Translations under genes and position numbers: made by a program | Assembly (NCBI GenBank): GCA_030670085.1 | Contig: DAOVCJ010000002.1 | Coordinates: 4,975-68,974, forward strand | Length of the DNA: 64,000 nt | Origin: Candidatus Aenigmatarchaeota archaeon | GTDB lineage: Archaea > Aenigmatarchaeota > Aenigmatarchaeia > QMZP01 | Direction of reading: 5' to 3' | Notes under the pieces: generated by a model | What the model was told of the DNA's origin: nothing | Databases searched by the model: none | Seen by the model: the letters and a program-made list of their open reading frames with translations, nothing else | In this document: positions 1,189-49,447 of the stretch, piece after piece | Numbering within the stretch: the stretch's first letter is position 1 | How the letters are laid out: each line of letters opens with the position of its first letter

Positions 1189-1277
1189 ATCTTTCGGAAA
1201 TCATCCGAAAAAGTTCTTCTGAAATTTGAATGAACTATTCCGAAAAACGTGACCCTGAAGCGTGATTGAATGCGAGA

Positions 1278-1307
1278 CCCGACTTGGGTAGACTGAATTA
1301 AGTCGGG
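1278..1307 (+). repeat. Hairpin element copy 1 (CCCGACTT-N14-AAGTCGGG) in the top6B leader
   Basis: Perfect 8-bp stem with a 14-nt loop gggtagactgaatt. The 3' stem runs straight into GGAGG. Confidence 0.8.
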
Positions 1308-1322
1308 AGGCGAAGATTGGAA

Positions 1323-1352
1323 GCCGGCTTGGGGCAATTGAACAAAGCCGGA
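1323..1352 (+). repeat. Hairpin element copy 2 (GCCGGCTT-N14-AAGCCGGa), in tandem 45 nt after copy 1
   Basis: Stem pairs 7 of 8 with a 14-nt loop ggggcaattgaaca. The 3' stem overlaps the GGAGG lying 9 nt before the top6B ATG at 1363. Confidence 0.75.
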
Positions 1353-1362
1353 GGTCGAAGGT

Positions 1363-6403: not shown

Positions 6404-6787
6404 ATGGAAGAGGAAATCAGAAAGGAGGAACCCAGACCAGAAGAGAAAAAGGAAGAGCCAGAAGAAGCGAAAGAAGAAAAGAAAGAAGAGACCGAGGAAA
6501 AACCAAAGGAAGAAAAACCAAAAGAAATAGTGGAAAGGAAACCCTGGACAAGGTGGACGATGGAAGAGAGAAAAGAACACTTGAAGAAGAGGAGACATGG
6601 TCCAAGGGAAAGATGGTTTGTTCTGCTTTTCTTCTCAATCCTGTTCATTGTATTCCTATCAGCACTGTCCTATTCAATAGTTTACCAGATGGACCCATCC
6701 CTAATAGTAACACTGATTGCAGTCGTTGTTATAATATCCATAGTGGGTATTTTCTACACACAGAACATATGGTATAGAACAGAGTAA
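6404..6787 (+). CDS. Hypothetical protein with an E/K-rich N-terminus and a C-terminal transmembrane region
   Basis: ORF of 127 aa. Low-complexity EEK repeats are followed by two hydrophobic helices. No recognisable domain. Confidence 0.35.
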   Translation: MEEEIRKEEPRPEEKKEEPEEAKEEKKEETEEKPKEEKPKEIVERKPWTRWTMEERKEHLKKRRHGPRERWFVLLFFSILFIVFLSALSYSIVYQMDPSLIVTLIAVVVIISIVGIFYTQNIWYRTE

Positions 6788-9299: not shown

Positions 9300-10076
9300 T
9301 TAAAACTCGCCTCTTTTGCTGAAGAACTTCTCATATTCCAGCGCAGTTTTTTCATAATCCTGTATAAAATTCTCATAGCTCTTTATCATCTTCTGGTCAG
9401 TGAGTCTTGTGACTGGTTCTGATCTTAGCTTCTCAATCCTGTCCCTGAATTTTTTGATTATGCTTTCGCACATCTTTGTCTCGAATTCATAGATATTTCT
9501 TACAAGTCTGGATTTCCTTTTCCTCCAAGTAGAGATTAGAATCGAGTCTATCTCAGGCTCAGAACCAGGCTCATATGACTTTATCTTGATATCCGTTATG
9601 AGCTTCCTAAGTTTAAGCTTCTCCCTTTTGTTAAGTATCAGTTTTTTCGCTCTCTTCAGAGTAAGGGAATCAAAGTACGCGAAAAGCTCGCTCACTACAT
9701 CGAACCTGGTCATGACATACCAGAGCAGTCCCAGGAAGAAGATATAGTAGTTTATGTAAATGATGGAGTCTATTAGAAATTTCTCTATAAGAATATTGTA
9801 AGACCAAAGAACCAGGGTCATCCCTGATGTTAACACTGTTAGTAAGGCATGAGACACCATATACCCAGAAGACTGAATCACTACGAATTTCTTCATCTTC
9901 TTTTCCATAAACAATGCAACATACCAGCTTATTCCGGAATGCAGAATGTAGAACATTATGAAGTATAAGTAGTATGGGAACCCGAATATGATTGCTACTG
10001 TGAAGCTGAATATCCCCATGCAAAAATAGTAGTAATGGATTATCTGGAAATACTTAACACCAATATAGATGTTCAT
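9300..10076 (-). CDS. Hypothetical membrane protein, paralog A (four TM helices plus a C-terminal coiled soluble domain)
   Basis: 258 aa in a low-GC insert. About 75% amino-acid identity to the adjacent paralog B. Confidence 0.5.
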   Translation of the reverse strand: MNIYIGVKYFQIIHYYYFCMGIFSFTVAIIFGFPYYLYFIMFYILHSGISWYVALFMEKKMKKFVVIQSSGYMVSHALLTVLTSGMTLVLWSYNILIEKFLIDSIIYINYYIFFLGLLWYVMTRFDVVSELFAYFDSLTLKRAKKLILNKREKLKLRKLITDIKIKSYEPGSEPEIDSILISTWRKRKSRLVRNIYEFETKMCESIIKKFRDRIEKLRSEPVTRLTDQKMIKSYENFIQDYEKTALEYEKFFSKRGEF

Positions 10077-10102: not shown

Positions 10103-10876
10103 TCAATAGTTCTTTTTGCTGAAGAACTTTTCATATCCCAGCGCAGTCCTTTCATAATCCTGTATAAACTTTTCATAACTCTTTATCATCTTCTGGTCAG
10201 TGAGGGTCAGATCTGGTTTTGATCTTATTTTCTCAATACTCTCCCTGAATTTCTCGATTATCTTCTCGCACATCTTTGTCTCGAATTCATAGATATTTCT
10301 CTCGATGTTTGACTTTCTTTCCCTCCATGCAGATATCAGAATCGAGTCTATCTCAGGTTCAGAACCAGGTTCATAGGACTCTATTTTGAGATCAGTAATG
10401 AGCTTTCTAAGACCAAGCTCCTCCCTTTTGTTAAGTATCAGTTTTTTCGCTCTCTTCAGAGTAAGGGAATCAAAGTACTCGAAGAGTCCACCCACTAAAT
10501 TGAACTTGGTCATGGTATACCAGAGCAGTCCCAGGAAGAACACGAAGTAGTTTATCTGAATAATAGAGTCTATTAAAAACCTCTCTATAAATACCTGGTA
10601 ATACCACAGAAACAGGGTCAGCCCTGCTGTTAAGAATGTTAATAAAATATGGGACACCATATAGCTATTGGATTGTATCACCACGAATTTCTTCATCTTC
10701 CTTTCCATAAAATATGCGACGTACCAGCTTATTGCAGAATGGATGATGCAGAAGATTATGAAGAATATGGAGTAGGGGAACCCGAATATGATCGCTGCCG
10801 TGAAGCTGAATATCCCCATGCAGAAATAGTAGTAATGAATCATCTGAAAATACTCAACACCAATATAGAGACCCAT
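10103..10876 (-). CDS. Hypothetical membrane protein, paralog B (tandem duplicate of 9300..10076)
   Basis: 257 aa. Long identical DNA runs with paralog A, for example gttaagtatcagttttttcgctctcttcagagtaagggaatcaaagtac. Confidence 0.5.
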   Translation of the reverse strand: MGLYIGVEYFQMIHYYYFCMGIFSFTAAIIFGFPYSIFFIIFCIIHSAISWYVAYFMERKMKKFVVIQSNSYMVSHILLTFLTAGLTLFLWYYQVFIERFLIDSIIQINYFVFFLGLLWYTMTKFNLVGGLFEYFDSLTLKRAKKLILNKREELGLRKLITDLKIESYEPGSEPEIDSILISAWRERKSNIERNIYEFETKMCEKIIEKFRESIEKIRSKPDLTLTDQKMIKSYEKFIQDYERTALGYEKFFSKKNY

Positions 10877-11015: not shown

Positions 11016-11045
11016 GACGGCTTGGACATACTGGGTTAAGCCGTC
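11016..11045 (+). repeat. Hairpin element copy 3 (GACGGCTT-N14-AAGCCGTC) in the leader of the L4 operon
   Basis: Perfect 8-bp stem with a 14-nt loop. Lies 16 nt upstream of the rpl4 ATG and downstream of AT-rich TATA-like sequence around 10953-10983. Confidence 0.8.
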
Positions 11046-12877: not shown

Positions 12878-12953
12878 CCCGACTTGGAAAGTTGGATTGA
12901 CGGATTGGTTATATTGGTTCAATCCGTCGAATTGGAGGTTGATAAAAGTCGGG
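12878..12953 (+). repeat. Hairpin element copy 4, a nested variant in the L2-S19 intergenic leader
   Basis: Outer stem is CCCGACTT / AAGTCGGG. It encloses an inner 9-bp hairpin GACGGATTG...CAATCCGTC at 12899-12928. Three ATTGG motifs. The 3' stem abuts AGGAG and the rps19 ATG at 12965. Confidence 0.7.
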
Positions 12954-16378: not shown

Positions 16379-16882
16379 GTGAAGAAGGATTGGTCAAGGA
16401 ACTGGGTGAAGTCGGTGCAGCCGAGGAAGCAGAGGAAGTACAGACACAACGCTCCATTACATGTAAGGCATAAGTTTTTGTCCGCGAATCTTTCCCCAGA
16501 ACTGAGGAGGAGGTTCGAAAAGAGATCGATGCCGGTCAGGAAGGGAGACGAGGTAGAGGTCATGAGGGGATCTTCCAAGGGATTGAGGGGAACGGTCAAC
16601 AGGGTTGATGTGAAGAAATGCAGGATTTATGTTGAAGAGATCAAGGTGAAAAAAGTTGATGGTTCCGAGATTATGAAGTCACTTCAGCCATCAAATCTCA
16701 GAATAGTAAAACTCAGTCTCGATGACAAGATGAGGCAGAGGGTTTTTGAAAGGACAGAAGAGAAACCGAAGGAAGAAAAGCCCGAAAAAAAGGAGGAAAA
16801 GAAACCCAAAAAGAAAGAAGAAAAAAAGGAGAAGAAAAAGAAAGAAAAGAAAAAGGAAAGGAGAAAGAAGGAGAAAAAGTGA
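16379..16882 (+). CDS. rpl24: 50S ribosomal protein L24 (uL24), GTG start, with a K/E-rich C-terminal tail
   Basis: KOW motif (VRKGDEVEVMRGSSKGLRGTV). The GTG start sits directly after the L14 stop. Tail EKPKEEKPEKKEEKKPKKKEEKK. Confidence 0.8.
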   Translation: MKKDWSRNWVKSVQPRKQRKYRHNAPLHVRHKFLSANLSPELRRRFEKRSMPVRKGDEVEVMRGSSKGLRGTVNRVDVKKCRIYVEEIKVKKVDGSEIMKSLQPSNLRIVKLSLDDKMRQRVFERTEEKPKEEKPEKKEEKKPKKKEEKKEKKKKEKKKERRKKEKK

Positions 16883-16886
16883 TAGC

Positions 16887-17564
16887 ATGCCGCATTTGAA
16901 AAGGTATTCGATGCCGAGATTTTGGCCCCTAGCAAAGAAGGGGAACATTTTCGCAATTAAACCAATGCCCGGGCCGCACCCGAAAGATAATTGCATACCG
17001 CTCCAGGTCATACTCAGGGATGTCCTTAGATACGCTGAAAATGCCAAAGAGGCAAGAAAGGTTCTAAGGGGTGGAAAAATTCTGGTTGACAAAAAGGTGA
17101 GAAAGGATCCCAAATTCCCTGTCGGCCTTATGGATGTTATCGAGATCCCTGAAGCAAAGCAATACTTCAGGATTACTGTCAACACAAGGGGCCTTTTACT
17201 GAAGGATATAACTGAGAAGGATGCGGACAAGAAGCTCTGCAGGATAAACGGGAAGGTCACTGTTAAGGGAGGCCTGTATCAGTTGAATCTGCACGACGGG
17301 AGAAACATACTGGTTAAAGAGGATGTTTACAATGTTGGCGATTCTGTTGTGATTTCAGTACCCGATCAGAAGGTTCTGAAACACTACAAGTTTGGGAAGG
17401 GTGAAAAAGCGATGGTTGTTGCTGGAAGGAACATTGGTGTAAAGGGAAAGATAAGGGACATCCGGGAGAAAAAGAACATGCTGGAAAAAGCGATGGTTGT
17501 ACTTGAAACCAAGGGAGGAGAAATTCAAACCCTGAGGGATTACCTCCTGATAGGCGAGGTATAA
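16887..17564 (+). CDS. rps4e: 30S ribosomal protein S4e (eS4)
   Basis: Start placed at MPHLKRYSMPRFWPLAKKG. The upstream part of the track ORF is the L24 tail read in another frame. Confidence 0.85.
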   Translation: MPHLKRYSMPRFWPLAKKGNIFAIKPMPGPHPKDNCIPLQVILRDVLRYAENAKEARKVLRGGKILVDKKVRKDPKFPVGLMDVIEIPEAKQYFRITVNTRGLLLKDITEKDADKKLCRINGKVTVKGGLYQLNLHDGRNILVKEDVYNVGDSVVISVPDQKVLKHYKFGKGEKAMVVAGRNIGVKGKIRDIREKKNMLEKAMVVLETKGGEIQTLRDYLLIGEV

Positions 17565-17602: not shown

Positions 17603-17632
17603 GGCGGCTTAATTCGATTAACTAAAGTCGCC
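17603..17632 (+). repeat. Hairpin element copy 5 (GGCGGCTT-N14-AAGTCGCC) in the S4e-L5 intergenic region
   Basis: 8-bp stem that includes one G.U pair, with a 14-nt loop aattcgattaacta. Nested inside an outer helix CCCGCAT (17581-87) / ATGCGGG (17651-57), which is followed by AGGTGATGAT and the ATG at 17668. Confidence 0.75.
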
Positions 17633-17667
17633 ATGCGATTCGTTGAACAAATGCGGGAGGTGATGAT

Positions 17668-19548: not shown

Positions 19549-20337
19549 GTGCGTGTTATGAAAATTAAGGTAATCAGGAAGAAGGGTGACGTGTTGACCT
19601 TTCTACTGAAGGATTCAACCCCTGCATTTGCGAATGCTCTCAGGAGGATAATGATATCCGAGGTTCCCACACTAGCGATAAAGTGGGTTGACTTCCATGA
19701 CAATTCCTCTGTCCTCTTCGATGAGATAATTGCACACAGGCTCGGCATGATTCCCTTGAAGTTTGACCCCAGCAAGTTCAACCTACCTGATGAGTGCAGG
19801 TGCGGCGGAAAGGGATGTCCCTTGTGCCAGGTTGTTTTTGCTCTTCAGAAGACAGGTCCTGGAGTGGCTCATTCAAGTGATCTTAAATCCTCAAACAGGT
19901 ATGTTAAACCAACGGATACCAGATTTCCCATTGTCGAGCTCCTCAAGGGACAGAACATAAAGTTTGAGGCCATTGCCCGTTTGAATACAGGGAAGAAGCA
20001 TGCGAAATGGCAGGCAGCAAACGCAAGCTACCAGTACTACCCTGATATAATTTCCGGGGACTGCAAGAATGCGAGCAAGGTTGTCTCCGAGTGCCCGACA
20101 GGAGCCCTGAAACTCAAATACAAAAAGGTTGATTTCAAGGACCCATTACTTTGCAACCTCTGCAAAAAGTGCGAGGAGGTCTGCAGCGGTAATCTGAAAA
20201 TCAGGGGAGACCCCACAAGGTTCTTGTTCAGGGTTGAAACTATATCCGGTCTGGAACCCGCGTACATTGTCCAAAAAGCCGCTGAAATTCTGGAGAAGAA
20301 GGCAGAAGAGTTTAAAAAGAGCGCGGGTAAATTATAA
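19549..20337 (+). CDS. rpoD: DNA-directed RNA polymerase subunit D (Rpo3) with a ferredoxin-like Cys cluster
   Basis: FANALRRIMISEVPTLAI...FDEIIAHRLGMIPL, plus CRCGGKGCPLC...CNLCKKCEEVC. Confidence 0.85.
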   Translation: MRVMKIKVIRKKGDVLTFLLKDSTPAFANALRRIMISEVPTLAIKWVDFHDNSSVLFDEIIAHRLGMIPLKFDPSKFNLPDECRCGGKGCPLCQVVFALQKTGPGVAHSSDLKSSNRYVKPTDTRFPIVELLKGQNIKFEAIARLNTGKKHAKWQAANASYQYYPDIISGDCKNASKVVSECPTGALKLKYKKVDFKDPLLCNLCKKCEEVCSGNLKIRGDPTRFLFRVETISGLEPAYIVQKAAEILEKKAEEFKKSAGKL

Positions 20338-20354
20338 AATAGAGCAACACGAGA

Positions 20355-20384
20355 CCCGACCTGGATCGATTGCATTAAGTCGGG
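20355..20384 (+). repeat. Hairpin element copy 6 (CCCGACcT-N14-AAGTCGGG) downstream of rpoD
   Basis: Stem pairs 7 of 8 with a 14-nt loop ggatcgattgcatt. Confidence 0.75.
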
Positions 20385-25125: not shown

Positions 25126-25155
25126 GGCGACTTTATTCAATTGCTCCAAGTCACC
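25126..25155 (+). repeat. Hairpin element copy 7 (GGCGACTT-N14-AAGTCaCC)
   Basis: Stem pairs 7 of 8 with a 14-nt loop tattcaattgctcc. Intergenic. Confidence 0.7.
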
Positions 25156-25173
25156 TTTCGATTCGTTTGGATG

Positions 25174-25203
25174 GATGGCTTGTTCTGATTGGCCCAAGCC
25201 ATC
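25174..25203 (+). repeat. Hairpin element copy 8 (GATGGCTT-N14-AAGCCATC), in tandem 48 nt after copy 7
   Basis: Perfect 8-bp stem with a 14-nt loop gttctgattggccc. Confidence 0.75.
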
Positions 25204-30078: not shown

Positions 30079-30480
30079 TTGATGACGAAGAAGGCCAAAA
30101 AGACAGAAGCCAAGAAAGCAGAGAAAAAGGAAAAGCCAAAAGAAACGAAGGAAAGGTTCGCATTCCCAGAGGCGTGTATTGTAAGGATAATGAGGAAGCA
30201 CCTGGACAAGGAGAAGATGATAAAGAAGGACGTCAAGGTAGGGATGAACAAGTGGCTCGAGAAAGTTTGCTCGAACGTCGCGAAAACCATGAACAAGTTC
30301 CCCTACGTTATGATGACGAAGAGCGAGTTCAGCAGGGGAATAAAGGTTTATGAGACACTAGAAGAGTTCGATAAAGAGAAAGAAAGGATACTCGCTCATA
30401 TGGATGCAATGAAAAAGGACATAGAGAAACTCGAAAGGGATTTGGGCAAGACAGAGCAGGAAGTTCTGGAGATGAGTTAA
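30079..30480 (+). CDS. Histone-fold-like protein with an N-terminal Lys-rich tail and a C-terminal coiled-coil extension
   Basis: Tail MTKKAKKTEAKKAEKKEKPKETKE. The core FPEACIVRIMRKHL...KDVKVGMNKWLEKVCSNVAKTM aligns with HMfB/NF-YB helices 1 and 2 (LPIAPIGRIIK ... IASEAIKLA). This is pattern-level evidence only. Confidence 0.4.
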   Translation: MMTKKAKKTEAKKAEKKEKPKETKERFAFPEACIVRIMRKHLDKEKMIKKDVKVGMNKWLEKVCSNVAKTMNKFPYVMMTKSEFSRGIKVYETLEEFDKEKERILAHMDAMKKDIEKLERDLGKTEQEVLEMS

Positions 30481-30542
30481 ACCTCCTGGTTCTTTTAAAA
30501 TAAATAAAAACCATTTTACTATACCTAAGTATATAAGCGTAT

Positions 30543-30572
30543 GACGGCTTGACCATATCGGATTAAGCCGTC
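30543..30572 (+). repeat. Hairpin element copy 9 (GACGGCTT-N14-AAGCCGTC) in the tRNA 5' leader
   Basis: Perfect 8-bp stem with a 14-nt loop. Flanked by AAGCGTAT, as is copy 10. The AT-rich stretch ttttactatacctaagtatataag (30514-30537) just upstream may be the promoter. Confidence 0.8.
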
Positions 30573-30584
30573 TCTCAAAGGATC

Positions 30585-30788
30585 GCGGGGGTACCCAAGC
30601 GGTCAAAGCGTATGACGGCTTAAACAGATTGGATAAAGCCGTCTGTGACTAAAGGGGCTAGCCTAAGGAGCTAGTGGCTTAGAACCCTTTTCGTTCCAAA
30701 CACACAAAAGCGTTCGTGGAAAAGAAAGGGTGAGTAATGCCTTCCTGGGTTCGAACCTCGAAAACGAGCGAAAATCCCAGCCCCCGCA
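30585..30788 (+). tRNA. Putative class-II (Leu/Ser-like) tRNA gene with multiple non-canonical introns; anticodon unresolved
   Basis: 7 of 7 acceptor pairing GCGGGGG (30585-91) / CCCCCGC (30781-87) plus discriminator A. D-arm TACCCAAGCGGTCAAAG. T-arm CTGGG-TTCGAAC-[19-nt insert with CTCGaaaaCGAG]-CCCAG. Hairpin copy 10 (30614-30643) interrupts the D region. The 204 nt minus about 120 nt of inserts gives the size of a class-II tRNA. Candidate anticodon loops are CTTAGAA (UAG) at 30678-84 or CTAAGGA at 30663-69. Confidence 0.55.
30614..30643 (+). repeat. Hairpin element copy 10 (GACGGCTT-N14-AAGCCGTC) inside the putative tRNA (intron-like)
   Basis: Same flanks as copy 9, which lies 71 nt upstream. 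Loop aaacagattggata. Confidence 0.75.
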
Positions 30789-30795
30789 TAATTTC

Positions 30796-31641
30796 TTAGT
30801 AGTAAGTAAGGAACCTCAGGCCCCCATATACCATGGAACATCCCAGACCAAAGTTGCCTAAAAGTTTCCAGAACCCGTCCCATGTCCTGTTTTTTGAGAG
30901 AACATACCTTCTAAGCATCCCCTTTGCAACCCATGCCCTGGGCGGGGAGTAGTTCTGGTTTATGTAATTCATGACCTCCATGTAGGACCTTGCTAACCTC
31001 TTCTTTGCCCAGTCCATCAGAACAGAAAGGGACATGTAATCTGTCTGGAATTCCACCCTACCGGCTTTTATCTCCTTCAGGGCACTGTCAAGGTCATACG
31101 CATTCATTTCATTCACAGCCAGACCAAACATGTCCTCTGTATGGGAATCAGATCCCACCACCATGGGTTTTCCAAACTCCTCTGCCTTGTTAAAGGCTAG
31201 CCTGTTCGAGAGCCTGTCAAGGTTCATGGAATTGAACACCTCCACAGCATCCACGTAGTATATCCCGTTCTTAATCCCCTGCCCCCTCAGATCAAACGGG
31301 TGGGGGGCCATTACCAAACCGCCCTGCTCATGGATCTTTTCAACAGTCTCTTGTAAACCAAGGTCCCTGTCTATGTGTTCATTTAGACCCAGCCCAATTA
31401 GATGCCCCTTCCGTGTGCTTATCTCAATACCGGGTATGAAAACCAGTCCGTATTCCCTTGCTGCTCTCTTTGCCTCTTTCCATGCCCTGAAGTCATCATG
31501 ATCTGTTATTGCAACACCAAAAATTCCCCTGAGCCTGGCTGCCTTCATAATCTCCCTTGGAGACATGAACGCCTCCCAAGGTATCTTCTTTCCCAACGAG
31601 TAATGGGAGTGACAGTGGAGCTCGAATTTCATCACTTTCAC
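30796..31641 (-). CDS. PHP-domain metal-dependent phosphoesterase
   Basis: N-terminal HCHSHYS...ITDHDD motifs of the PHP family. Confidence 0.75.
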   Translation of the reverse strand: MKVMKFELHCHSHYSLGKKIPWEAFMSPREIMKAARLRGIFGVAITDHDDFRAWKEAKRAAREYGLVFIPGIEISTRKGHLIGLGLNEHIDRDLGLQETVEKIHEQGGLVMAPHPFDLRGQGIKNGIYYVDAVEVFNSMNLDRLSNRLAFNKAEEFGKPMVVGSDSHTEDMFGLAVNEMNAYDLDSALKEIKAGRVEFQTDYMSLSVLMDWAKKRLARSYMEVMNYINQNYSPPRAWVAKGMLRRYVLSKNRTWDGFWKLLGNFGLGCSMVYGGLRFLTYY

Positions 31642-33932: not shown

Positions 33933-34033
33933 TTTAATCCTTTACCCTTTCTTTTTATTTTTGTTTTGTTAGTTCTTTTTCTAGCTGAATCGAGATAATC
34001 AGAATAAAAGCGCTGGGAGAGGGAAATTCGAGG

Positions 34034-34063
34034 GACGACTTTTTTCAATATACCCAAGTCGTC
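34034..34063 (+). repeat. Hairpin element copy 11 (GACGACTT-N14-AAGTCGTC) downstream of tuf
   Basis: Perfect 8-bp stem with a 14-nt loop ttttcaatataccc, followed by CATGCG as in copy 5. Confidence 0.8.
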
Positions 34064-34227
34064 ATGCGCTTTTCGAACCCCCATGCCCATACGGGCACAC
34101 GCTATTTATTCCCGTTTTTGCTCACCCGCTTTTTGTGAAAGCGGCGAGCTCCTGTAAAAAGCGGGTCTCCAAGCGTGCTCCTTAACCATTCGGACATCCC
34201 AGCACAATCAAGCCCTTATCGCTGTAA

Positions 34228-48364: not shown

Positions 48365-49447
48365 ATGTCAAATAAGGGAGACGACTTGGACAGATTGGAC
48401 AAGGTCGTCCAACCAAAAGAATCGAATGACGACTTGGTCAAATCAGATAAAGTCGTTCAACCAAAGGAATGGCCTGTTGCAGAGGGAAGGTACAAAGTGG
48501 GAAATAAGGATTCCCCGATTGCAGTGTGTACAATGGCATCTGTTGAGATGAATATGCCCATGGACAAGATCGCAATCATTGGAAAATGTGTGACCGAGAA
48601 CTTAGGGGTAGAGAAGATAATAAAGAACACGATATCAAACCCGAAAATAAGATACTTGATATTCTGCGGCAAGGAATCGCACGGACATTTCGTGGGCCAG
48701 GCTATGAAGTCCCTGAAGGAAAACGGAGTAGACGGGGAGAAGAGAATCATCGGAGCAAAGGGAGGCATGCCTGTTCTAAAGAACCTTGAGATGGAGGAGA
48801 TAGAGAGGTTCAGGGAACAGGTAGAACCGATTGATATGGCAGACGAGACAGACACTGCAAAGATACTGGCAAAGGTTAATGAGCTGTTTGAAAGGAACCC
48901 AGGGCCATTCGAAGGAGGGAGTATGGAGACAGAAGAAGAGGTAAGGGAGACCAGGGCAGAGTTCCACCCTATCGCCGAATGGATGAAGGATCCAGAGGGC
49001 TTTTTCACAATATACCCAAATGCGGAGAGAGAGGAGATAGTTGCTGAACACCACGACAACGAAGGCAAGATGAAGAGCAGAATCTTTGGGAAATCAGCAG
49101 AAGACATATACCACCATATAATAAAAAACAACCTGGTTTCCAGGTATGACCACGCAGCCTACTTGGGAAGGGAGCTTGCAAAAGCAGAGCTTGCGATGAG
49201 AAACCAGCTGGACTATGAACAGGACGCTGATTTAAAAACCATGAAACAGAATAATGAACAAACAGAGCCAACGGTTCCCAGAGAGCCGGAAATTTCCAGA
49301 CCACTTCCCCCAAAACCAAAAAAACCGAAAGGTAGGTTTCTCACCTACATCAAGGGGGGAAGGGAGATCGCAGTGGAGGACTTTACAAGACAGGACAATG
49401 AATTCAGGGCTCTTCTCAGGGAAAGAGGAATGTCAAGAATATTTTAG
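48365..49447 (+). CDS. MtrA-like protein (tetrahydromethanopterin S-methyltransferase subunit A family homolog) with an extra C-terminal domain
   Basis: WPVAEGRYKVGN...IAVCT...IIGKCVTENLGVEKII...SNPKIRYLIFCGKESHGHFVGQA...ENGVDGEKRIIGAKGGMPVLKNLEMEEIERF follows the MtrA pattern (WP..GEY.VG..VAV.T..G.C.TEN.GIEK..SNP.IRYLI..G.E..GH..G). The N-terminal 32 aa are two in-frame hairpin elements. Confidence 0.55.
   Translation: MSNKGDDLDRLDKVVQPKESNDDLVKSDKVVQPKEWPVAEGRYKVGNKDSPIAVCTMASVEMNMPMDKIAIIGKCVTENLGVEKIIKNTISNPKIRYLIFCGKESHGHFVGQAMKSLKENGVDGEKRIIGAKGGMPVLKNLEMEEIERFREQVEPIDMADETDTAKILAKVNELFERNPGPFEGGSMETEEEVRETRAEFHPIAEWMKDPEGFFTIYPNAEREEIVAEHHDNEGKMKSRIFGKSAEDIYHHIIKNNLVSRYDHAAYLGRELAKAELAMRNQLDYEQDADLKTMKQNNEQTEPTVPREPEISRPLPPKPKKPKGRFLTYIKGGREIAVEDFTRQDNEFRALLRERGMSRIF
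48380..48409 (+). repeat. Hairpin element copy 12 (GACGACTT-N14-AgGTCGTC) inside the N-terminal coding region of the MtrA-like gene
   Basis: 8-bp stem including one U.G pair, with a 14-nt loop ggacagattggaca. Encodes DDLDRLDKVV. Confidence 0.7.
48428..48457 (+). repeat. Hairpin element copy 13 (GACGACTT-N14-AAGTCGTt), in tandem 48 nt (16 codons) after copy 12
   Basis: 14-nt loop ggtcaaatcagata. Encodes DDLVKSDKVV. Confidence 0.7.

Follow-up and report, generated by a model that had tools for sequence, protein, structure and literature searches.

The stretch of DNA analysed here (the window) comprises 64,000 nt of contig DAOVCJ010000002.1 from a Candidatus Aenigmatarchaeota archaeon, and its open reading frame (ORF) 1363-2955 encodes topoisomerase VI subunit B (Top6B; Pfam Topo-VIb_trans, 5.7e-57). 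Two hairpins lie upstream of this gene, with a start-to-start distance of 45 nt. Direct reading of the sequence gave CCCGACTT-gggtagactgaatt-AAGTCGGG for copy 1 (1278-1307), directly followed by GGGAGG, and (G)CCGGCTT-ggggcaattgaaca-AAGCCGG(A) for copy 2 (1323-1352), whose last two stem bases are the first two G of the Shine-Dalgarno (SD) sequence GGAGGT (1350-1355). The top6B ATG (1363) is 8 nt past the GGAGG of copy 2. A first-pass annotation had described this arrangement as a possible SD-sequestering leader. The tandem itself is real, with copies 45 nt apart and two G of GGAGG in each 3' arm, and the other elements then cited are also present (12878-12953 before rps19, the outer helix before rpl5 and the tandems 25126/25174, 30543/30614 and 48380/48428). 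Nevertheless, the top6B hairpins are recent copies of a dispersed and structurally constrained palindromic repeat.

Gain and loss of the repeat unit

A metagenome search with Top6B returned 17 loci. Among 12 upstream regions of top6B orthologues a hairpin was found in L107 only (related loci are given by number), whose Top6B is 95% identical to that of the window, and the orthologues at 41-74% identity had no leader hairpin. The leader holds no hairpin in L100, one in L107 and two in the window. Over 1294 nt on the upstream side and 2805 nt on the downstream side the identity of L100 to L107 is 100.000%, their sole difference being 61 nt in L107 versus 2 nt in L100. This 61-nt segment contains a 47-nt block, AATACAAGA-hairpin-AGGTGAAA, unit 1 being present in L107. 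With respect to L107, the window has an extra 45-nt block, which is unit 2, bordered by AGGCGAAG ... GGTCGAAG. In the same way, L085 has one additional 46-nt unit upstream of the L37Ae gene when compared with L047. Gain and loss of the repeat unit, between genomes that are identical or close, take place in one block.

The nearest relative of the window in the genome collection scanned below is L017, which is ~80% identical. The rpl4 hairpin (11016) is missing at the syntenic site of L017, where the promoter-like AAACTTAAATATATTA upstream is kept. The rps19 hairpin and its SD are common to both genomes, the L017 site consisting of a degenerate single hairpin with no nested inner copy, and one further copy is present in L017 but not in the window. 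A search for closer strains by exact match to the S19 protein retrieved the same strain only. Concerning the borders of the indels, two of the three clean cases have flanking direct repeats of 6-8 nt, which on one side lie 7-11 nt away from the arm; the third (L100/L107) is without a clear one.

A larger repeat of ~200-500 nt was also noted at the contig ends of one metagenome-assembled genome (L058, 6037-6540, also L002, L070 and L082), containing one hairpin, another copy whose loop is enlarged, and part of an ORF. The repeat looked like an insertion sequence (IS) and its ORF fragment seemed to resemble the C-terminus of a transposase, but Pfam gave no match. L070 looks like a deletion between the identical 13-nt 3' arms of two hairpins.

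Structure and distribution of the family

The window was scanned for hairpins having an 8-bp stem, with CTT..AAG at the loop end, and a 14-nt loop. This gave 15 strand-hits against a mean of 0.5 and a maximum of 3 in 100 dinucleotide shuffles, that is, an excess of ~30-fold. The 10-mer singled out by the first-pass annotation is not significant by itself (10 matches versus 5.4 expected), and the significance of the family is due to the whole hairpin. A covariance model built from the hairpin family and then run on the window identified 14 hairpins at nine loci (1278, 1323, 11016, 12878 (outer), 12899 (nested), 17603, 20355, 25126, 25174, 30543, 30614, 34034, 48380 and 48428; Table 1), of which 20355 and the nested inner 12899 were new. 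The units before top6B scored 38.5 bits (1278; E-value 9e-9) and 29.5 bits (1323). The window family has an 8-bp stem with the pattern NNCGRCTT/AAGYCGNN and a loop of exactly 14 nt. Rfam gave no family match anywhere in the window, region 30400-30900 yielding a chance-level match only.

Table 1. Location of the repeat copies along the 64-kb window
Feature	Position	Strand	Details
Repeat unit 1 before top6B	1270..1315 (hairpin 1278-1307)	+	CCCGACTT / 14-nt loop / AAGTCGGG; 3' flank AGGCGAAG
Repeat unit 2 before top6B	1316..1360 (hairpin 1323-1352)	+	GCCGGCTT / 14-nt loop / AAGCCGGA
Hairpin in the rpl4 leader	11016..11045	+	rpl4 ATG 11061; 5' flank GTGTAT, 3' flank CAACCGAGTGATGG
Nested element before rps19	12878..12953	+	Outer arms CCCGACTT...AAGTCGGG(AGG); inner hairpin 12899-12928, GACGGATT/AATCCGTC
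Hairpin before rpl5	17603..17632	+	rpl5 ATG 17668; enclosed by outer helix 17579-17586 / 17651-17657 ending in GGGAGGTGAT
Degenerate copy	20355..20384	ambiguous	CCCGACCT...AAGTCGGG; 27.3 bits on -, 26.2 on +
Tandem pair upstream of OB-fold protein gene	25126..25203	-	Hairpins 25174-25203 and 25126-25155, 48 nt apart
Hairpin before tRNA-Leu	30543..30572	+	12 nt upstream of the 5' end of tRNA-Leu (30585-30788)
Repeat unit as tRNA-Leu D-loop intron	30606..30651 (hairpin 30614-30643)	+	
Repeat unit as tRNA-Ser(GGA) T-loop intron	34026..34071 (hairpin 34034-34063)	-	50.3 bits
Tandem pair 48380 / 48428	48380..48457	+	48 nt apart; in frame in the first 32 codons of the MtrA-like ORF (ATG 48365), or in its leader

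The true start of rps19 is ATG 12965, the outer helix before rpl5 is GCCCGCAT/ATGCGGG, and copy 20355 sits between ORF 19549-20337 and a small membrane ORF (ATG 20407). Tandem spacing is 45-48 nt in the three close-set pairs of the window, 71 nt at 30543/30614 and mostly ~43-48 nt in the related loci. Apart from 30543/30614 (36/46 identical), the two members of a window tandem resemble each other no more than they resemble distant copies, and the closest relative of unit 1 within the window is 20355 (also 36/46). The first-pass annotation had taken the four tandems for duplications of the element. It is true that copies of the repeat are gained in unit-sized blocks, but most tandems are not simple local duplications because their partners, 30543/30614 apart, are not each other's closest relatives. 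The clusters were also compared with a CRISPR array and this identity was discarded, neighbouring repeats being only 28-36/46 identical, the spacers 15-18 nt long and alike between loci, and the clusters made up of at most three units.

At the MtrA-like ORF, the N-terminus (48365-48460, +) consists of two 16-residue repeats, DDLDRLDKVVQPKESN and DDLVKSDKVVQPKEWP, encoded by the two in-frame 48-nt hairpin units, and the Pfam MtrA match begins only at residue 33. A leaderless start is suggested by a TATA-like box ~26 nt upstream of the ATG, so that these repeats may be translated. Promoter-like AAACTTAAATATAT boxes were found upstream of both the rpl4 and the MtrA-like copies, for which reason these hairpins are probably transcribed.

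For the structural analysis, 99-101 copies from the window and the related genomes were pooled. The repeat unit measures ~46-48 nt and is made up of the 30-nt hairpin with about 8 nt on each side. Its stem is always of 8 bp and its loop always of 14 nt, with the consensus GnnyAnATTGAATn, in which positions A7-T8-Y9-R10 are conserved and the centre, CAATTG, is a palindrome in its own right. Readings of this loop as a K-turn or K-loop, a C/D box or a TATA box were rejected by eye, the required GA pairs or A/T runs being missing. Outside the stem there are near-invariant complementary bases, G(-4) in 91/99 and C(+4) in 90/101 copies, and A(-3)/T(+3) are common. In contrast, the bases next to the stem (-1/+1) can pair in only 3/99 copies versus ~40 expected, and they are the same base in 60 copies versus 31.5 expected. 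Direct-repeat statistics for target-site duplications on the flanks revealed this same-base bias at ±1 and ±2 only, with no consistent duplication. Two flank classes were recognized, one symmetric (tTGGAAw-hairpin-wwTCCAAA), which can extend by a 5-bp outer helix past a 2x2 mismatch, and one asymmetric ((A)AGCGYAT-hairpin-yyTCGAAAC).

The R/Y stem pair left free by the search pattern was G-C in 59 copies and A-T in 20, with 0/79 mismatched, whereas it was mismatched in 9/26 chance hits from unrelated organisms. In the family alignment 93.6% of the stem cells are paired and 7/10 pairs show double changes, values above those of all shuffles and slid registers. In addition, the four G·U wobbles of the window are all on the sense strand. 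Orthologous copies gave the same picture: L087:838 and L039:162 have loops identical at 13/14 positions and a stem pair swapped from G-C to A-T, and compensatory pairs distinguish both tandem hairpins of L011 from those of L046, with an intervening spacer that is 16/18 identical. Stem pairing is thus kept by compensatory change and the stem-flanking bases are kept unpaired. The compensatory change at orthologous sites points to a constraint on individual copies, but it may alternatively come from recurrent insertion at a preferred site or from repair templated by the opposite hairpin arm.

The pattern was then searched in 185,579 genomes, one per prokaryotic species, a collection from which the genome of the window itself is absent. 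The 99 loci obtained comprised 73 from ~24 Ca. Aenigmatarchaeota or uncultured-archaeon assemblies, often with at least 10 per assembly, and 26 single hits in unrelated organisms, ~17 chance matches having been estimated from the degeneracy of the pattern. Among the scanned species genomes, the family is above chance in Aenigmatarchaeota alone, and a viral contig collection gave no matches to the hairpin pattern. The copy number per genome is perhaps between roughly tens, extrapolating from the related assemblies, and ~200, from the density of the window. The searchable literature on hairpin repeats, tRNA introns and rRNA insertions of Aenigmarchaeota and DPANN archaea contained no description of this element.

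On a crude ORF map 91/101 copies are intergenic; those abutting ORFs sit directly after stop codons, and among the ORF-abutting units inspected none splits a conserved ORF. The repeat is therefore nearly confined to non-protein-coding sequence. In six copies (window 30543, before 30585, and five other loci) 10-13 nt separate the 3' end of the hairpin from the 5' end of a tRNA downstream. The overall orientation bias with respect to genes is weak (29:18), and for many copies the two strands receive equal scores. Another hairpin repeat, unrelated to the first and of the form GAAGGYGNC-N3-7-GNCRCCTTC (9-bp stem, short loop), gave 46 matches in 23 related loci (L007, L039, L025, L043 and 19 more), where it often adjoins the 30-nt hairpins; it does not occur in the window.

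Copies in tRNA and rRNA genes and other genes of the window

Neither ARAGORN nor Rfam called any tRNA in the intact window, and ARAGORN called just 3 in 60 related loci (about 420 kb). However, when the 34034 hairpin and 8-9 nt on each side were removed in silico, ARAGORN called a tRNA-Ser(GGA) (34011-34203, -) with two introns, one of 63 nt at the canonical position and one of 47 nt in the T-loop; this gene, missed by standard tools, is directly downstream of the EF-1alpha gene. The unit lies next to the T-stem, followed by a TTCGA/TCGAA helix formed by the exon and the 3' flank of the unit, and then by a TTT bulge. The tRNA-Leu (30585-30788, +) was called by ARAGORN after in silico removal of three segments, namely the hairpin unit in the D-loop, a segment in the region of the variable arm and a 19-nt T-loop intron (30756-30774). 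At the 30614 unit the exon sequence GGTCA pairs with TGACT of the unit, after which come a 3-nt AAA bulge and the D-stem GGG. The anticodon of the spliced tRNA-Leu was mostly AAG according to ARAGORN, and TAG under other splice choices; AAG is an unusual anticodon in archaea. Its T-loop intron, CCTCGAAAACGAGCGAAAA, starts with CCTCGAA, which is the 3' flank of the tRNA-Ser T-loop unit, and it may be a remnant of this element that lacks the hairpin. In silico removal also restored tRNAs in L052, L006 (where the unit is a canonical-position intron) and L004, and less clearly in L080.

Hairpins were also located within rRNA genes whose length exceeds that of the Rfam models by 420-1400 nt. The alignment of two 16S genes revealed insertions of ~45-49 nt at two different sites. 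In the 16S gene of L061 the unit occupies the loop of a native hairpin, where it is bordered by a 4-bp helix (CCAA/TTGG), then a 3-nt bulge, then the native stem of 6-7 bp. The overlong rRNA genes of L030 (2593-5087, -) and L061 (321-4739 and 5496-7397, -) contain many mini-insertions of 37-67 nt, and the 16S gene of L030 has in addition one 850-nt insertion, apparently ORF-bearing.

The copies at 34034, 30614 and the L061 16S gene present only the 3' half of a bulge-helix-bulge (BHB) motif, that is, a native stem, a 4-5-bp helix and a 3-nt bulge. On their 5' side the tRNA and rRNA copies have a loop of 8-9 nt and not a 3-nt bulge, so the complete hBHBh' arrangement of two 3-nt bulges and a 4-bp helix is lacking. 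Around the family at large the half-BHB is not enriched (28/99 versus 23±4 in shuffles and 24 in a mirrored control), and it is absent at both top6B units (1278 and 1323). By ARAGORN, removal restores a tRNA at 34034 and 30614, an intron test that is not applicable to the top6B copies. The tRNA and rRNA copies are thus introns of the relaxed type.

Among the other genes of the window, 9300-10076 and 10103-10876 (-) are adjacent paralogues encoding membrane proteins of ~258 residues with near-identical N-termini (M..YIGVKYFQ.IHYYYFCMGIFSF), and L017 has a single region homologous to this pair. Two extremely Lys/Glu/Arg-rich low-complexity ORFs (6404-6787, + and 16746-17564, +) lie beside ribosomal-protein genes, the second ORF being probably a wrong-frame reading of such genes.

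Possible explanations and comparison with known systems

The first possibility considered was that of the first-pass annotation, namely that the hairpins act as an SD-occluding riboregulator or RNA thermometer, sequestering the SD of top6B, rps19 and rpl5 until melting or protein binding releases it. In its favour, GGAGG abuts or overlaps the 3' arm at 1323 and 12878, and at 17603 via the outer helix, and L017 has kept the rps19 hairpin together with its SD. However, partition-function folding of the top6B, rps19 and rpl5 (outer helix) leaders paired only the first two G of GGAGG, with a probability of being unpaired, P(unpaired), of at most 0.07, whereas that of the AGG was 0.70-0.99; across the SD of unit 2 (1350-1355) the values were 0.02, 0.03, 0.98, 0.83, 0.74 and 0.12. 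Hence just 2 of the 5-6 SD bases are paired. Of the 99 copies scanned, 2 (1278 and 1323, both in the window) have an SD-like motif that overlaps the 3' arm and has a start codon after it; the third case, 12878, lay outside that scan. The ending ...GTCGG(G)AGG is common to the 12878, L107 and L017 copies and makes the stem/SD overlap a sequence property of one local subfamily, instead of the independent placement in three unrelated leaders that had been proposed. The top6B hairpins are not conserved either, being absent from the contig with identical flanks and from the orthologues at 41-74% identity, and the same element is found in introns, after stop codons and in either orientation. Moreover, the GGGAGG of copy 1 has no usable in-frame start, TTG 1317 being out of frame with 1363. 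In the empty top6B allele, aaaacGTGATtggtATG, GTGAT is 4 nt upstream of the ATG and, as part of the extended SD sequence, is likely to be its SD, whereas in the filled alleles GGAGGT is supplied by the element. The stem/SD geometry follows from the hairpins belonging to a repeat that is dispersed and indel-prone; SD occlusion or a thermosensor is not supported and is very unlikely. The hairpins may still have a modest effect on translation or mRNA stability.

Instead, we consider it reasonably likely that the hairpins belong to a mobile palindromic element of Aenigmarchaeota, similar to bacterial REP (repetitive extragenic palindrome) elements, that doubles as an intron core and is not a dedicated translational switch of top6B. 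It would be a small mobile palindrome like the bacterial REPs or miniature inverted-repeat transposable elements (MITEs), recognised as a single-stranded hairpin by a putative enzyme. Copies would survive where extra RNA is harmless, such as 5' leaders, intercistronic spacers, positions just past stop codons, tRNA leaders removed by RNase P and loops that allow removal of the unit by the splicing endonuclease. Of the two units at top6B, the first would be a recent arrival that brought GGGAGG, and the second would supply the working SD, GGAGGT, 8 nt before the ATG. Any effect on translation would then be a by-product, and probably a small one because just two SD bases are in the stem.

Several observations weigh against this explanation. 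Compensatory changes in orthologous copies suggest that the element serves the host at some level and is not purely selfish. The same is suggested by the sense orientation of the asymmetric AGCGYAT-hairpin-TTTCGAAAC class, ~14/18 of whose copies were read as lying before an SD and ATG or before tRNA exons, although the automatic ORF labels did not reproduce this orientation. Instead of insertions, the unit-sized indels could represent deletions, stimulated by the hairpin, that join short direct repeats. An all-against-all ORF comparison over ~575 kb of sampled loci found no recurrent transposase-like gene near the copies, yielding only syntenic orthologue groups. Finally, the gene calls in the related loci are crude ORF maps, and the top6B copies are only presumed, from their position, to be transcribed.

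A further explanation is that every 46-48-nt unit, mRNA leaders included, is a mini-intron or processing cassette. The splicing endonuclease or a hairpin-specific nuclease would excise it by cutting ~8-9 nt to each side of the hairpin, the ends would be religated and the insertions would be phenotypically silent. The similar size of the indel or tandem unit (45-48 nt) and the tRNA introns (hairpin plus 8-9 nt per side) would agree with this, as would the in-frame units of the MtrA-like ORF, the copies located in the D- and T-loops of tRNAs and within 16S/23S genes, sites at which an insertion left in place should do harm, and the native stem, 4-5-bp helix and 3-nt bulge found there. Nevertheless, the half-BHB is neither enriched in the family nor present at top6B, the 5' side is a loop, and no conserved ORF was found split by a unit, so we regard such a cassette as unlikely. 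We judge equally doubtful its mobile version, with the hairpin, its flanking mismatches and its G:C clamp serving as an endonuclease handle in tRNA, rRNA, mRNA leaders and even coding sequence. If true, one family would link the gain of archaeal tRNA and rRNA introns to a REP-like genomic repeat. The exact geometry (8-bp stem, 14-nt loop, A7-T8-Y9-R10, G(-4):C(+4) and ±1 mismatches), together with the compensatory substitutions, the asymmetric class preceding SD and ATG in sense orientation and the four sense-strand wobbles, would fit an RNA hairpin with a host function, either as the site of a lineage-specific RNA-binding protein or as a nuclease barrier that stabilises or processes many transcripts, a role demonstrated for certain bacterial REPs, with mobility being secondary. 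But its presence differs between identical genomes, it shows no gene-class specificity, gene orientation is weak with many copies equal on both strands, and no partner protein was identified; this explanation also seems to us improbable. As for a double-stranded DNA palindrome bound by a dimeric protein (an operator, promoter element or nucleoid site), the whole element is palindromic, including the loop centre, the strands often score alike, and the calculated loop centre is ~26-27 nt upstream of the tRNA +1, where an archaeal TATA box would sit. However, the arms co-vary perfectly, unlike independent half-sites, the ±1 positions are identical and not complementary, the loops are unlike the promoter-like AAACTTAAATATAT sequences of this genome, and copies are located inside introns and rRNA genes, all of which makes it extremely improbable.

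If the repeat is indeed a mobile palindrome of the REP type, it would be a structurally selected repeat in a streamlined archaeal genome of ~1 Mb and a sequence-defined candidate for the spread of non-canonical tRNA and rRNA introns in DPANN archaea. The element also helps to account for the failure of standard tools to detect most tRNA genes of these genomes. During annotation, both the elements and the disrupted RNA genes around them can be flagged with the covariance model. The natural empty, single and double top6B alleles are ready material for studying the effects of hairpins on translation and mRNA stability.

Bacterial REPs and the bacterial interspersed mosaic elements (BIMEs) that they form are imperfect palindromes of ~30-40 nt, present in many copies, extragenic, frequently located right behind coding regions, clustered, transcribed as RNA hairpins, with varied stems and occasionally intragenic (PMC3733652). 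The Aenigmarchaeota element is likewise a short hairpin (30 nt, 14 copies in 64 kb), extragenic and often just after coding regions, with stem-variant families, occasional intragenic copies and, as its position suggests, transcripts forming RNA hairpins. In REPs one end of the stem bears a GTAG or CGTC tag that is conserved and left unpaired (PMC3733652), a feature missing here, the CGTC being within the paired stem. Other differences are the loop, of fixed length (14 nt) and partly conserved versus 4-5 nt in CGTC REPs; the head-to-tail clusters at 45-48 nt, in contrast with the head-to-head REP dimers (REPINs); the archaeal (DPANN) host; and the additional role as tRNA/rRNA intron core. REPs and REPINs associated with REP-associated tyrosine transposases (RAYTs) are short palindromes (20-40 nt) that flank a Y1 (RAYT) transposase gene; no recurrent ORF family was found near the copies in the ~575 kb of sampled loci.

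The transposed BHB introns of Thermoproteales are near-identical short sequences that occupy canonical as well as non-canonical positions of different tRNA genes, a pattern that implies spread at the DNA level (Fujishima et al. 2010, reviewed in PMC4090602), by a mechanism that the review records as unknown (PMC4090602). Our units similarly occupy a D-loop, a T-loop and a canonical-position intron, but most copies are outside tRNA genes, in mRNA leaders and spacers without BHB context, and the conserved part is the hairpin in the intron core and not the splice motif. With MITEs the element has in common its short, non-autonomous nature, inverted-repeat ends, strain-level presence or absence and nesting; the hairpin arms could serve as terminal inverted repeats, and 6-8-nt direct repeats occur at 2/3 clean indels. 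However, no related autonomous IS was found near the copies in the sampled loci. RNA thermometers such as ROSE and fourU also have a hairpin beside the ribosome-binding site, whereas here the SD core is unpaired and the element is dispersed and not conserved at orthologues. Rickettsia palindromic elements (RPEs), classically of ~100-150 bp, can sit in frame in protein-coding genes and also in RNA genes. The two in-frame 48-nt units at the start of the predicted MtrA-like ORF resemble them, although classical RPEs are longer and bacterial and the window units are archaeal and of 46-48 nt. RPE insertions in genes have been noted, and two short families of CGTC REPs have been equated with RPE-4 and RPE-6 (PMC3733652). 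Although the element differs in defining features from REPs (end tag, head-to-head dimers), from canonical BHB introns (5' bulge) and from SD-sequestering regulators, it is closest in kind to bacterial REP elements and to the transposed tRNA introns of archaea.

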